A DNA stretch of 64,000 nt, from positions 63,674,001 to 63,738,000 of the forward strand of contig NC_043001.1 in assembly GCF_006345805.1 (NCBI RefSeq), written 5' to 3'. Shown one piece after another: positions 7,549 through 62,575 of this stretch. Numbering within the stretch: the first letter of the stretch is position 1; each line of letters begins with the position of its first letter. This stretch comes from Octopus sinensis. Taxonomy: Eukaryota. The notes beneath the pieces are model-generated. The model searched no databases. It was not told where the DNA came from and saw only the letters and a program-made list of their open reading frames with translations. Position numbers and translations under genes: made by a program.

Positions 7549-8230
7549 TTGATTTAATTTAATCAGGTTAGTTTACCATTAAACAGTAGATGAAACGGTG
7601 CATCGTATAAGAAATTACAGGGTAAATGTTTTTTAATTTTCTCCTGGTTTACGGAATTGATGTTATTTTGCGGTTGAAGCGTTTGGCTGTTATTTCTAGT
7701 GGGTGAATGGCCTATTAGGGCCGTTCCTTGATTGTGATGTTGAACTTAAAAATGGTATATGACTATTTAATTTTTTCCCACTAGGCCGCTGGTGGCAAAA
7801 AAATTCTACAAAATTTTTTTTGCCACCCTATATTGATTAATTATGAATTTTCTGGTTAATTCCGTAATGGAATCGGCGGCTTATATTTATTTGCTGCCGA
7901 TAAATTTGGCGCGAGTGCGATGATTTGAAAATTTTAGGTCAGATATTGCCGAGGCAGGGACGGGAATGCCTCGTGAAAAATATCTGTTCCGACTTGGCTA
8001 TTTCTTACTGATGAATCTAAGGGCCTATAGTAGATTGGCTTGATTTAATTTAATCAGGTTAGTTTACCATTAAACAGTAGATGAAACGGTGCATCGTATA
8101 AGAAATTACAGGGTAAATGTTTTTTAATTTTCTCCTGGTTTACGGAATTGATGTTATTTTGCGGTTGAAGCGTTTGGCTGTTATTTCTAGTGGGTGAATG
8201 GCCTATTATGGCCGTTCCTTGATTGTGATG
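7549..8230 (+). mobile_element. HHR-bearing non-coding retroelement, family A (491-nt monomer, ~1.4 copies, in (TA)n)
   Basis: 7549-7739 is repeated almost identically at 8040-8230. (TA)n on both sides; internal hammerhead. Confidence 0.8.
8001..8105 (+). ncRNA. Type I hammerhead ribozyme with enlarged stem II (family A)
   Basis: tttctta-CTGATGA-atcta..(insert)..tagat-GAAAC-ggtgcatc-GTA-taagaaa. Perfect 7-bp stem I. Confidence 0.85.
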
Positions 8231-9605
8231 ATATATATATATATATATATATATATATATATATATATATATATATCACCGTCACCGTGACCGACCAGGC
8301 TATCAGATGTTGCTACACATCGCTGGTCACAATGCGCTTCGCATTGTTTTAGCTTTCAAATGACGCCACCCCACTGGCTAAGCGGACAGGCCAATATATA
8401 TATATATATATATATATATATATATATATATATATATATATATATATATATATATATATATATATATATATATATATATATATATATAATATACATAATT
8501 ATGCATAATTTACTCCTATCGACCCAGCGACAGAATAGAAAGCGTGTTTGAATGTGGATGAGGAAGTCTGTTTCTTCTCATATATATATGTGTGTGTGTG
8601 TGTGTGTGTGTGTGTATGTATATATGTATGTATGTATGTATGTATGTATTTCATTTTGATATTTGGTCAGCTGTTATATTTTGTGTTGTTTGGTAAAAGT
8701 TAATGGAACTGAATGATTCAATAATGGCATACAGCAATTAGCGTGAGGAGTTGAGGGTGGGGGTTGGAAAGCTTATCGGGTGTTTAGCAAACTGACCATC
8801 TATATAACTATGTATGTTTGTGTACGTGGGTAAGTGTTTGTGGGTGTGCGTTTTCATACGTATGTACATAGATACATACCTGTAATTATAGGTGCACTTG
8901 GATGTGTAACACACTACCGAAATACCAATCTTGAGAAATTAGGCTTCTCAAAACCAGAAAGGAGAAGGCTGATTTGAAGACTACAGATCCAATCCATCAC
9001 TGGAACTGTAAAAATCTGTAAAACTTTTCAGAAGTTTAACATTTAAGTATATATGAGCATGTCTAGATATGCAACTATATGCATGAGAATACAGACATAA
9101 AACAAAACGTACGAAGCTGCACATATACATACATACACATACGCGCGCGCGCGCGCACGCACATACACACACACACAGAGTTTTCTAGTCGGAAGGGTAA
9201 GGTGTGCCTATGAACTTTTGTAGGGCTTTCATGATACTGATGAGGAAGGAAGGAAGGTAGGAAGGAAGGAAGGAAGGAAGGAAGGAAGGAAGGAAGGAAG
9301 GAAGGAAGGAAGATATCCTCAAGTCGAAAACTCAGTTTTGAACGCTGAAGGGACACACAGTGCCCCGTGGTTGTGTTAAACTGGGTGAATGCTCAAGTCG
9401 ACCCGAGCGCTTAATAGTGATGGAGGTATTGTGAGAAAATGTACATGATGAAAGTTACTTATGAGTGTAAGAGGATGTAAATAAAAATGCCAAAATAACA
9501 TGAAAAATAAAGATAAAATGTATTTATCACTCCCCAAATATTATACAAGTTTGATTACTGTTATATGATTGACTCGTTATTGGTGATTATATTATTTTCT
9601 ATAAT

Positions 9606-10000
9606 GCGCAGGAGTGGCTGTGTGGTAAGTAGCTTGCTTACCAACCACATAGTTCCGAGTTCATTCCCACTACGTGGCACCTTGGGCAAGTGTCTTCTAT
9701 AGCCACGGGCCGACCAAAGCCTTGTGAGTGGATTTGGTAGACGGAAACTGAAAAAAGTCCATCGTATATATGTATATATATATATATATGTGTGTGTGTA
9801 TTTATGTGTTTGTGTTTGTCCCCCCAACATCGCTTGACAACTGATGGTGGTGTGTTTACGTCCCCGTAACTTAGCGTTTCGGCAAAAGAGACCGATAGAA
9901 TAAGTACTAGGCTTACAAAGAATAAGTCCTGGTCGATTTGCTTGACTAAAGGCGGTGCTCCAGCATGGCCACAGTCAAATGACTGAAACAAGTAGAAGAG
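9606..10000 (+). mobile_element. tRNA-derived SINE with CR1-type 3' tail
   Basis: A/B-box-like head (TGGCTGTGTGG, GAGTTCATTCCC). Tail GGCGGTGCTCCAGCATGGCC shared with the LINE end at 37071. Another copy at 37834-38249 (-). Confidence 0.85.
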
Positions 10001-10027
10001 TTAAAAAGTTACGTACACTACCAAATT

Positions 10028-10465
10028 GGATTTTTCTAAAAGAAGGCCAGTTTTTTCTAGTTAACTAAATAATTTGAAACTTCGTATACTGGTAGAATGT
10101 GTCAAAAGAAAACATTAATTTCAATTAGTTTTTTGGAGAAAAATGTATTTTCTAACTTTTACGTAGTTTAATTCTTCGAATTTTAACCAATCGTATTCTC
10201 TCTTTTGACCTCAATTCATTTACTGCCGTGTTATTCATCCTTATCAGTCTTCTGTTTTTTGTCTTCAAAGGCTTGTTTATTTCAATGTCATCCCTGACTT
10301 ACGGACCGATTACCTGTGTGTGTGTGTGCGTAAAAGTTAGAAAATACATTTTTCTTCAAAAAACTAATTGAAATTAATGTTTTCTTTTGACACATTCTAC
10401 CAGTATACGAAGTTTCAAATTATTTAGTTAACTAGAAAAAACTGGCCTTCTTTTAGAAAAGATCC
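10028..10465. mobile_element. MITE with ~135-bp TIRs and 8-bp TSD
   Basis: Long near-perfect inverted ends GGAT.../...ATCC. ACCAAATT duplicated at 10020-10027 and 10466-10473. Confidence 0.9.
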
Positions 10466-59824: not shown

Positions 59825-60091
59825 TCATCACTAGCTAGCCACTTACACCATCTAATTAATAGAAAAATACAATATAGACTTTCCTGGGCTATAATAGATT
59901 CTGGTATAGCCCAGGAAAGTCCAGCACTCCATTTGTGGACTCTACTTAAAGAATCCCTCAAAATTTTAACCCATAACTCACCACAATTGCTTAATAAACA
60001 CAACGAAGCCTTCACAATGTGTAAACACAGATTCTTCCGCACTTTTAAATTATTTCATAAATCTAAATGTAAATTTAACACCCACATATAA
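59825..60091 (+). pseudogene. C-terminus of a PLE GIY-YIG endonuclease
   Basis: SSLASHLHHLINRKIQYRLSWAIID...LKESLKIL..LLNKHNEAFTMCKHR matches the PLE pattern LS..IW.LK...W.I...E...LLNKR.E...C.H. Confidence 0.7.
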
Positions 60092-60959
60092 ACCTCGATG
60101 ATCATTAAGATATACCTCTCTATATCTCTTCTATCAACCTTACCTCATCACTTTATAAGATAAATATTTATTCTTTAATTTATTTTAAAACCTTAACCTA
60201 ATAAATCCCCTAATACTTAACTCTAACTCCTACTCCTAAATAATTTAACATTCATCTAGTTTCTCCATTCACGACTACCTATACACCCATAACCCCATTG
60301 CTAAAATAACTCTACAGCCACTGACATTTTTTAAAGCGTTTACTACTAGATTTCCTCCCCAACCCCTATACACTAGAAGAATACCTATTTCTTTATTACC
60401 CACAAGGGGCTAAACACAGAGGGGACAAACAAGGACAGACATAGGTATTAAGTCGATTACATCGACCCCAGTGCGTTGGTACCGACAATTCTCTTTAAAT
60501 TCCCTTCATTTTGCTCTATTTTGTTTTTTACGTTATCTTCATTTACCTCCACCTAATCCCTCTTCTGGCTATCTTTGTACACTATTTTCTTAGACACTAT
60601 ATTTTTATATACCATATTTTATCCTTAACGCCAATCCTTAACTTCCTCCCTCACTCTATCTACCTCTCTTTCTTTCTATTTACTTATTTTCTTTTTACCA
60701 CTTAATGGCCACCTCCGCTACTATTCTGTAATTGAACGTTGATATGTTCGCATCTTTTTTCTAGATGTTTACAATATCAGAACTTCAACCTACATGGATT
60801 TACACAGGATTGCTCCTAAGGACTTATTTCTACAAGATCGGAAAGTTGAACTGTGAACTTTTGTGCTTCTTTTTTCTTCTCTTTCTTCATCTTATTCCTC
60901 CACTCCTACCATCTAAGTCGCCATTTCATTAATTTATACCCTTCTCATTTTCCCTATTT

Positions 60960-61015
60960 GTCTCCGATGACGGGAGATCCCATACTCTGGGATATTCCAG
61001 AAATAGCTGTAAGAC
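60960..61015 (+). ncRNA. Degenerate hammerhead (family G) in the PLE 3' region
   Basis: gtct-CCGATGA-(long stem II)-GAAAT-agct-GTA-agac; two deviations from consensus. Confidence 0.6.
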
Positions 61016-62527
61016 TTCGAAAAAGCTGCGCGCCATCCATTGAGAAGAGCCTCATCAACCGAGTCCTAATATTTGGCTTTGTTTAGTTAGTGAGAAATTT
61101 TCAAACCCGTCCTCCCAAGTCACTATGAATTCAGTCGTGATGATTGTTTTTGCAGTGCTGGATAGCAAGAACAAGTGTGGTCGGAGCGATGTTACTGCTA
61201 CCTCCGCTGGAAAGATGTGTCAACCCTTCAGAACCACATACATTTCCCAGTCAGAGGCTTGATATAGCATATTAATGCTTTGAATTGTTATGATGCTGTA
61301 TATCAATAATAAGGAACATTATAAAATGTACCAAACTGAGCAACGAAACTACTGATTGCATCGAGATCATACATTTTGGCTATCTTCTGTGTCAGAATCG
61401 GGCCTATAAGGTTCAGTTTTTTCACAATAAAATCTTCACCGTTCATTCCTAATATTCACAATTGTTTGAAATTTCAATTGTATTACACAATATGACTTAA
61501 ACTATTTAATCTAATCCAGTAGCTGAGTAAAAGTCTGCATTAACAAATTAATGAGATAATACTGAAATGTTATAACTCCAAGACGAATTTTACAGCCGTT
61601 TTCTGGCAGAAAATGCCATTAACTGTGTTGTTTCGATTTTCCTTTTCTTTCACTTCCACTTGAACTTGAACAAACAATCCAGAAATATGCGTATGAGTTT
61701 AAGTACATAAGTATGCAGACCTATATAATTGTGCATATACACATGTATATATATATATATGTGTGTGTGTGTATGCGCATGCGTATATCAATATACACTT
61801 CTTTCTTTCTTTCTCTGGTTCCTCAGCCCCCACTATCACATTAGCCAATACAATAAACACCTCCGTCTATTTTTAGAAACCTGACCATTATATCTTATTC
61901 TTCCCTTCCCTTTTGAGGTTTACTACCCCTGTACCATTTTCTGTACTCATCCCTCCACCTTAGTGACTTTCAAAATTATCACCCTACCTCCCACACCTCA
62001 CACATATTCAGTCCTTACATCCTTATCTCTTTCTATCCCTCCCCTACTCCTCTGCCATCCCCTCATAATATCTTGACCACCAACTAACACTACTTTTCTC
62101 ATTTTCTCTTCCTCTTTCTTTCTTCTTTCCTCACGTATTCCTTTTGACCATTCTCTTCATTTTAACACGCACATCTTTTTTCTCCTCTCTATCTACTTAA
62201 TACTACCACTACATTCTCAAAATTCAATTCCCACCAGAAGACCCCTTTGAATGAACAGCACATGGAATCTACGTCTCCACACTTTCCATTTGTAATGACA
62301 AAACATGAAGTCCTATCGGAATTTACATACCATGGACCAGAAGCATTTCTACCACTTCTACACACCACTTTCCTTAGATAATGGAGCTGCAACTATAACA
62401 TCCCACATATGTTTTTATTTTTACTTTTATTTTCTCATTTCCCTTTATACTTTTTATTTCCATCCTTTTCCAAAATAACTCCGTATATTGAACTCTACTA
62501 TTTCCCTCTATTTAACCATTTCACCTT

Positions 62528-62575
62528 GTCTCTGATGAAGGAATATCCCTAATATCCCAGAAACAGCTGTAAGAC
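62528..62575 (+). ncRNA. Type I hammerhead ribozyme (family G)
   Basis: gtct-CTGATGA-aggaatatccctaatatccca-GAAAC-agct-GTA-agac; palindromic ACAGCTGT. Confidence 0.8.

Follow-up and report, generated by a model that had tools for sequence, protein, structure and literature searches.

Results

Hammerhead ribozymes in a (TA)n-rich stretch of the octopus genome

The region studied, NC_043001.1:63674001-63738000 of Octopus sinensis, is a 64-kb stretch (hereafter the window, with positions counted from its first letter) in which type I hammerhead ribozymes recur within repeats related to Penelope-like elements (PLEs) and retrozymes. It has 34.5% GC in a genome of 2.72 Gb and is rich in (TA)n microsatellite, which makes up 7.7% of the window, compared with 2.4% of evenly spaced genome regions (200 kb). 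A preliminary description of this DNA listed 15 hammerhead motifs in at least seven sequence contexts. All 15 are present at or beside the earlier coordinates, 11 intact and 4 damaged, and they belong to seven families (A to G), though to only ten insertions, because the B and D copies and both E copies are head-to-head fold-backs and are thus counted twice. Two descriptor scans give 11 matches each in the window. Block-wise dinucleotide shuffles yield 0.17 and 0.23 matches (never more than 1), so that the motif frequency is well above that of shuffled sequence. One of the 11 matches in one scan, at position 3052, is at chance level, and the motifs outside the scans were identified by eye. The local density of 15 motifs per 64 kb compares with at most 3-4 scan matches in evenly spaced regions (shuffles 0.7-0.85), a comparison sample of 200 kb only.

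The 116 Rfam matches in the window at E<=1 include no hammerhead family, only low-complexity miRNA matches; the long stem II inserts probably explain the miss. Since Rfam matched none, the hammerhead call rests on the descriptors and on covariation. In 18 sequences from the sister subfamilies A and A2, three neighbouring stem I pairs differ on both sides between the subfamilies in a compensatory manner, each representing one lineage event and not many independent ones. The core CUGAUGA/GAAA is invariant in A/A2, a single copy with an altered A9 excepted; in the same 18 sequences, 96.5% of the long stem II insert is paired. Core and pairing are also preserved in further, unrelated hammerhead families found in the flanks of the copies. 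We note at least 10 more such contexts there (L008, L026, L045, L097, L159, L162, L172, L182, L197, L210, L215), mostly near TA and with a palindromic stem III, L215 being another tandem unit of ~560 nt.

Stem II is 50-68 nt long in A, B and C, and stem III is mostly an even, perfect palindrome, as the preliminary description had observed for most motifs. The predicted stem III self-duplexes of A-E and G have energies of -6 to -19 kcal/mol and are family-specific, cross-family duplexes reaching only 0 to -5.5 kcal/mol with the exception of the A/A2 pair. Stem III is predicted to be much stabler as a self-duplex than as a hairpin, as dimeric cleavage would predict. The placement of the motifs in islands bounded by (TA)n holds for 12 of the 15; F merely adjoins (CA)n/(TA)n, and G and G2 lie outside TA tracts. 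An AATAAA signal, said to follow two motifs, was looked for at 13 predicted cleavage sites and lies 3' of three of them, all in C and D; no copy read carries a poly(A) tail.

ORF-less tandem families A and B

Family A is represented at 7549..8230 (+) by a 5'-truncated array of 1.4 units of a ~490-nt repeat without an open reading frame (ORF), which lies inside (TA)n, carries an intact hammerhead (core 8008, predicted cleavage after 8098) and stops at the shorter of two recurrent 3' ends, here called E1. A 5'-truncated copy of subfamily A2, 87% identical to the window A copy, occupies 34612..34910 (+; core 34710, predicted cleavage after 34800). Family B, with a tandem unit of ~535 nt that is likewise ORF-less, forms a fold-back inside (TA)n at 30595..31817. 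Its left arm (-) ends at E1 and contains the hammerheads at 30816 (intact) and 31344 (damaged by a mismatch within stem III); the arms meet at 31368, and the right arm (+), with the hammerhead at 31460, extends to the longer, tailed end E2 at 31817.

Elsewhere in the genome, A/A2 and B form low-GC, head-to-tail arrays of up to ~9 units, each unit with one hammerhead, dispersed over many contigs. The A and B copies on these contigs are 97-99% identical and show 5' truncation, fold-backs and the same two fixed ends; their monomers fold at z ~ -6. Target-site duplications of A/A2 and B are illegible within (TA)n. By these features A/A2 and B appear to fit the pattern of non-LTR (long terminal repeat) retrozymes (Cervera and de la Pena 2020, PMC7229834; Li, Clavereau and Pollet 2026, preprint 10.64898/2026.07.22.740005). 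Like those retrozymes, A and B consist of low-GC tandem units that lack an ORF and carry a single type I hammerhead, have a strongly folded monomer and are proposed to depend on PLEs, whereas the unit lengths of ~490 and ~535 nt, the fold-back and tail signatures of PLEs and the (TA)n targeting set A and B, known here from DNA, apart. The words 'inverted', 'microsatellite' and 'octopus' do not occur in the available text of PMC7229834, and the preprint, in the part available, samples no mollusc and explains arrays by a satellite model.

Within the B arrays, subfamily variants are fixed across every unit in 22 cases, and seven variants are fixed in one array only, some of them in 7/7 units; 80 are private to single units, and six are confined to part of an array.

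An inverted A2 piece at 35145..35209 (-) corresponds to the last 60 nt of the neighbouring A2 copy, with 100% identity, and stands head-to-head with family C. Because piece and neighbour share a terminal variant absent from 11 other A2 loci fetched, we rejected the reading of the A2/C junction at 35209 as two different RNAs in one insertion; the piece is best read as a local inverted duplication across a TA tract. Another TA-ending repeat, at 38941-39063 and 41189-41317, lies tail-to-tail on either side of the TA tract of 2 kb in which the two E fold-backs sit (shorter copies are at 29528-29593 and 29672-29738), and this arrangement, like that of the A2 pair, suggests inverted duplication across TA tracts.

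At locus L124:1416-3081 (= L047), the tailed end of a B copy directly adjoins a 5'-truncated array of A with no intervening TA, possibly a template jump between retrozyme families; the tailed ends of A and B both carry a CACCCT..ATTAATTAT motif. In contigs of run X1, guessed to be RNA, 10 of 13 changes relative to L112:2703-3778 are A to G on the B ribozyme strand, the pattern that adenosine-to-inosine editing of fold-back double-stranded RNA would give; this reading is unverified and was not used as evidence. In X2 (contigs only), one 565-nt contig closes on itself after one unit, as a tandem array would also do, and it was not used either.

Families C, D and E belong to ORF-bearing elements

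Family C, at 35209..35451 (+), is a 5'-truncated pseudo-long terminal repeat (pLTR)/3' end that stops at E1 (core 35308, 55-nt stem II, predicted cleavage after 35381). The family D fold-back at 38309..38856 appears to be the 3' end of a second PLE of the Hydra clade, its left arm (-) bearing the tailed end E2 and an intact hammerhead at 38439, and its right arm (+) bearing E1 and a hammerhead at 38787 that is damaged by a 1-nt insertion in stem III. Family E is present as two fold-backs. In the first (39641..40032), the left arm ends at E1 (hammerhead 39772-) and the right arm at E2 (39820+); the second (40640..41039; hammerheads 40773- and 40821+) is 97% identical to the first and is either a local duplication or an assembly duplicate.

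Longer C copies run upstream into an ORF with RIRW, SDKT and YRDD motifs and a C-terminal endonuclease ending in CNLC..E..N..CPH (seen in L106:2848-4323, L107, L108 and L085). The D ORF is contiguous, via a 3' untranslated region (UTR) of ~2.9 kb of TA/TG microsatellite (L244 and L146-L165), with the sequence found upstream of the D pLTR elsewhere, and each long insertion would therefore bring new (TA)n targets with it. In 13 of 20 scanned loci, an E hammerhead pLTR lies 5' of the E ORF, which is an 859-aa frame in L243; the window E copies form a sister subfamily of the pLTR preceding this third Hydra-clade ORF and differ from it upstream of the ribozyme. The reverse transcriptase (RT) motif YRDD and, C-terminal to it, the GIY-YIG-type endonuclease motif VY.C..Y[IV]G are present in all three ORFs. 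The RWK-type and DKT motifs, compared without the D N-terminus, are RIKWK and SDKT in E and RIRWL and SDKT in C. None of the three has CCHH; in an alignment (A1) inspected by eye, CxxC and CxH flank a conserved E and N, except that the E endonuclease ends in C-R-N where the others have CxH. A CxCX5C linker is found in D and E, whereas C has a single cysteine after an S/N-rich insert.

Among the ESM Atlas neighbours (0.95-0.98) are clusters that carry GIY-YIG in 26-50% of their members and RVT_1 in 18%. Pfam gives no relevant family for the C, D and E ORFs, a sequence search of the PDB with alignment A1 gives 0 matches, and the AlphaFold (single-sequence) model of the D ORF, with a mean predicted local distance difference test score of 38.6, was not used. 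The D protein has at least 589 relatives, nearly all without a name, with 37-57% identity among the 120 matches listed, and on that number the Hydra clade would extend far beyond the 27 families known from the 2021 list.

Taken together, C, D and E read as the pLTR/3' ends of three young, ORF-bearing PLEs of the Hydra clade, a clade of C-terminal endonuclease-containing (EN+) PLEs with hammerheads, a preference for (TA)n and a published Octopus member (Craig et al. 2021, PMC8557442). The assignment was made by motifs and by eye against the published alignment, not by an RT tree. The likeness extends over the protein (RWK-like and DKT motifs, no CCHH, a CxxC..E..N..CxH end) and over the insertions (a type I hammerhead near the 3' end, (TA)n, partial tandems, inverted 5'-truncated copies, an optional tail). 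Hammerheads of the clade often have an unpaired base of stem II, where D has U-U. Several features differ from what is published: the tails are ~75-150 nt instead of 30-40 nt; Hydra elements are generally shorter than 3 kb, a tendency, whereas those here exceed it (C arm 3.7 kb, D 3' UTR ~2.9 kb, E frame 859 aa); the 50-68-nt stem II of A, B and C and the mostly palindromic stem III are unlike published Hydra hammerheads; and C has no CxCX5C linker. Hydra-1_Obim of Octopus bimaculoides also prefers (TA)n, but its own hammerhead, given in the PMC8557442 supplement, matches no family here. A 'radiation of non-autonomous elements', as first proposed, thus describes A/A2 and B only, C, D and E being truncated ORF-bearing PLEs; the kinship with PLE pLTRs and retrozymes is upheld, with a link to autonomous ORFs for C, D and E and none found for A and B.

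The 5' starts of 9 of 34 C arms fall within 14 nt of each other, ~180 nt upstream of the predicted cleavage site, a cluster that is inflated since the query began near there. A similar E hotspot lies 25-35 nt upstream of the core, and both may mark transcript starts in an upstream pLTR. In L088, the truncated 5' end of the C arm is separated from the TA tract by ~130 nt, which may be the terminus of a different element.

Young families with one-of-each ends at (TA)n

Candidate copies in the genome number at least 1814 for A, 2257 for A2 (overlapping A), 760 for B, 909 for C, 2093 for D, 465 for E, 2779 for F and 2146 for G. These are lower bounds, and the best 40 per family were scored: among these, identity to the window copies is 95-100% for A-E (A 98-100%, C mostly 99-100%) and ~90% for F and G (90-93% and 89-92%), which marks A-E as young and F and G as older.

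Copies of A-E each end at E1 or E2, both of them downstream of the predicted cleavage site, with E2 beyond E1 by ~75 nt (D and E), 106 nt (A), 142 nt (B) or 147 nt (C). (TA)4 or more abuts 192 of 200 distinct 3' ends, against a background of 6%, and 36/38 C, 26/26 D and 49/50 E ends lie at TA. The preliminary description had regarded TA tracts as 'safe havens'. Given this enrichment, and since (TA)n preference is a described trait of the Hydra clade (PMC8557442), targeting fits better than survival.

The two ends are distributed over the fold-backs in a regular way. We found 50 same-family fold-backs of A, B and C, 46 of which could be scored (two others have one aberrant end, and two run off the locus), and in all 46 one arm stops at E1 and the other at E2 (p=1.4e-14 against at most 0.5). 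The same holds for 6/6 A2 fold-backs, giving 52/52 for A/A2/B/C, and for 7/7 D and 18/20 E fold-backs, both of the latter sets having been selected on one E2 arm. The E fold-backs were counted by hand, leaving out L140, whose left arm enters the ORF, and L136 and L047/L124, in which a TA run separates the arms. Comparison of haplotypes between the two arms shows no mismatch in 114 polymorphic site-insertion pairs, where a concordance of 0.5-0.77 is expected per site; for example, B27 and C1604 are each concordant at 14/14, with about half expected. The junctions are sharp, 40 of 46 lying within 5 nt of blunt, and in 19 of 46 fold-backs neither arm can be a copy of the other.

Arms begin within 5 nt of the predicted cleavage site in only 1/38 A, 2/50 B and 0/34 C cases. 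Cleaved linear RNA was considered as the template and rejected, since 5' ends do not cluster at cleavage sites.

Older families and other features of the window

Family F at 47720..47870 (-) is an old, abundant short repeat with a minimal hammerhead (47796-) whose stem III is ACGU and in which a base bulges out 5' of stem II, typical of those described in PMC4209133 (Cervera and de la Pena 2014); the G8 to U change in the window copy has probably inactivated it. An old PLE-type 3' end, family G, lies at 62440..62720 (+; 3' limit approximate), with its core at 62532, stem III ACAGCUGU and predicted cleavage after 62571; G copies stop at (CA)n or at (TA)n, or run on into a tail. The G2 fold-back (59693..61131, both strands) is also old and stands outside (TA)n. 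It consists of an inverted pLTR end (59693-59796, -), a decayed Hydra-type endonuclease C-terminus (59825-60091, +), a CT-rich 3' UTR and a hammerhead damaged by U4 to C (60964+), and ends at 61131. G2 is the decayed end of another Hydra-type element, and 59825-60091, earlier put forward as a remnant of the mobiliser, is the endonuclease end of G2 itself, for which Pfam gives no relevant family. The other proposed remnant, a decayed frame at 27150..27700 (-), has many stops and motifs that by eye look GIY-YIG-like. It has no Pfam match and no tblastn match to the C, D and E ORFs; it does not look Hydra-like, and its membership in the hammerhead system is not shown.

Remnants of non-LTR retrotransposons are found at 14523-16901 (+), 17030-19484 (-) and 35605-37080 (+), the last beginning at a TA tract, with RVT_1 matches at 15222-15746 and 35605-36519; we presume these RT frames to be CR1/RTE-like. 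An intronless, tropomyosin-like frame of 177 aa at 51331-51864 (-; PF00261, E 1.5e-20) is either an exon-free gene or a retrocopy. A short interstitial (TTAGGG)n run is located at 10894-10953.

Discussion

The Hydra clade, its ribozymes and (TA)n target, the inverted copies, the tails and the link between retrozymes and PLEs are already in print. New here, as far as the literature was searched, are the particular families and the one-of-each end rule, neither of which was found; Repbase, Dfam and several supplements lay outside that search. The main text of a 2026 repeat annotation of Octopus vulgaris (PMC13282606), as available, does not contain 'ribozyme' or 'retrozyme', and its supplements may hold the families under other names.

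We consider it probable, though well short of assured, that the window is a (TA)n hotspot of Hydra-clade retrotransposition with dual-strand priming, in which A and B are retrozymes borrowing the machinery. A Hydra RT/endonuclease, probably dimeric, would nick both strands of the palindromic (TA)n. Each 3'-OH would prime reverse transcription at one of two internal sites, one at E1 and one at E2, both sites lying on a single RNA or on identical molecules from one source, and the two complementary DNAs (cDNAs) would then be joined head-to-head into a fold-back. The template would be uncut or re-ligated RNA; since the arms cross intact hammerheads up to nine times, it is taken to be uncut or circular. 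The homogeneous A/B arrays suggest that one monomer was copied repeatedly, most simply from a circle, which could form when dimers joined through the palindromic stem III undergo hammerhead cleavage and the product is ligated. Circles have been shown for other retrozymes, circles and more-than-unit copying have already been proposed, and dimeric cleavage and circular templates were suggested for the minimal hammerheads of PLEs (PMC4209133). As no autonomous parent was found for A and B, we infer their mobiliser from the shared insertion signature; the likely candidates are the young families C, D and E, whose copies elsewhere in the genome are near-identical.

A biochemical counterpart exists in another clade. 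In vitro, both target strands are nicked and extended by Poseidon PAc of Anolis (Frangieh et al. 2024, PMC11167929), which uses uncut RNA and starts reverse transcription at two internal sites whose spacing corresponds to the genomic tail. Like the families here, it combines two start sites, both strands, an AT-rich target, an uncut template and a predicted protein dimer; its sites, however, are 30-40 nt apart, and neither a strand difference in start site nor a one-of-each rule is reported for it.

Could the two arms instead derive from two RNA molecules of one source locus, held in a dimeric ribonucleoprotein, perhaps via stem III, and primed at E1 and E2, respectively? Both arms can hold the same sequence over more than 1.5 kb (L109), the stem III self-duplexes are family-specific, and arm lengths are uncorrelated, all of which such a pair would accommodate. 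We nevertheless regard it as unlikely: no arm is discordant in the 114 comparisons despite several active subfamilies, the sole cross-family junction in the window is better explained by local duplication, and nothing in the model itself forces one E1 and one E2.

For the inverted pLTRs of Adineta Penelope, in which the tail is optional on one pLTR, self-priming has been invoked (Arkhipova et al. 2013, PMC3846280), the tail being treated qualitatively there; our counts argue against self-priming as a general route. Snap-back of one cDNA or of an antisense template, with arrays growing by unequal crossing-over once inserted and hammerheads as passengers, would predict the haplotype sharing, and nesting is possible in 27 of 46 fold-backs. 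A few junctions have overlaps of 13-30 nt, partly shared variants exist in the arrays, and hammerhead cleavage is dispensable for Poseidon in vitro (PMC11167929). Non-nested fold-backs, however, cannot arise in this way, and these make up 19 of the 46, including 4 of 14 in the non-tandem family C. Junction overlap is mostly 0-5 nt, the outer ends are both fixed family sites abutting TA, and stem I is kept by compensatory changes. We hold this explanation as a whole to be decidedly doubtful.

That some other enzyme moves A and B (a PLE of the Naiad or Neptune kind, or a long interspersed nuclear element), or that they are satellites no longer mobile through RNA, is very improbable: it would suit the missing parent ORF, the (TA)n preference of Naiads (Octopus Naiads are listed in the PMC8557442 supplement) and the RVT_1-matching frames in the window, but 5' truncation, fold-backs and the pair of fixed ends are just the same in A and B as in C, D and E, the Naiads of cephalopods have been described as remnants that are long inactive and lack canonical hammerheads, and no poly(A) tails were seen.

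Several observations weigh against dual-strand priming by Hydra machinery. Two E fold-backs, L121 and L144, are true E2/E2 exceptions, and at L047/L124 two B tails face each other across a TA run. The end classes behind the 52/52 count were defined on the same data as were scored, at the best 40 of hundreds to thousands of loci. The sites of the 114 concordant pairs are linked and not independent, and concordance would equally be expected with a single active source locus per cell or with gene conversion. In B, the lengths of the two arms show no relation (rho -0.03). Variants scattered over part of an array are not explained by a single circle, and may be assembly noise or later change. At the A/B loci there is no Hydra ORF match except one decayed neighbour in L015; A and B have no sequence similarity to the C, D and E ends; and a query with the E N-terminus gave only E-family loci among 20 of 150 matches. 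In the literature, the start sites of Poseidon were not seen to differ between strands (PMC11167929), and only 1/9 Xenopus retrozyme dimers cleaved (10.64898/2026.07.22.740005).

What the genome offers is thousands of young copies, 97-100% identical, of autonomous and non-autonomous families together, with sharp ends and a uniform target. The origin of the inverted repeats and one-sided tails of PLEs, and the making of retrozyme arrays and the enzyme behind them, thereby become questions that can be counted or assayed; the long-stem-II hammerheads concerned escape Rfam. Family C, which ends in TA without the CxCX5C linker proposed to guide (TA)n targeting, bears on that proposed role as a natural test, although C could be moved in trans.

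Tentatively, and with rather less than even confidence, we extend the scheme to a general Penelope rule: a dimeric RT/endonuclease, with one subunit at each of two different fixed sites on one uncut or circular RNA, would start copies from both nicks in (TA)n. If this rule is true, a single mechanism would yield inverted pLTRs, the one-sided tail and tandem arrays on circles made by hammerheads; A and B would be the clearest genomic case of retrozymes moved by Hydra-clade PLEs; and C would show (TA)n targeting without a zinc-finger-like linker.

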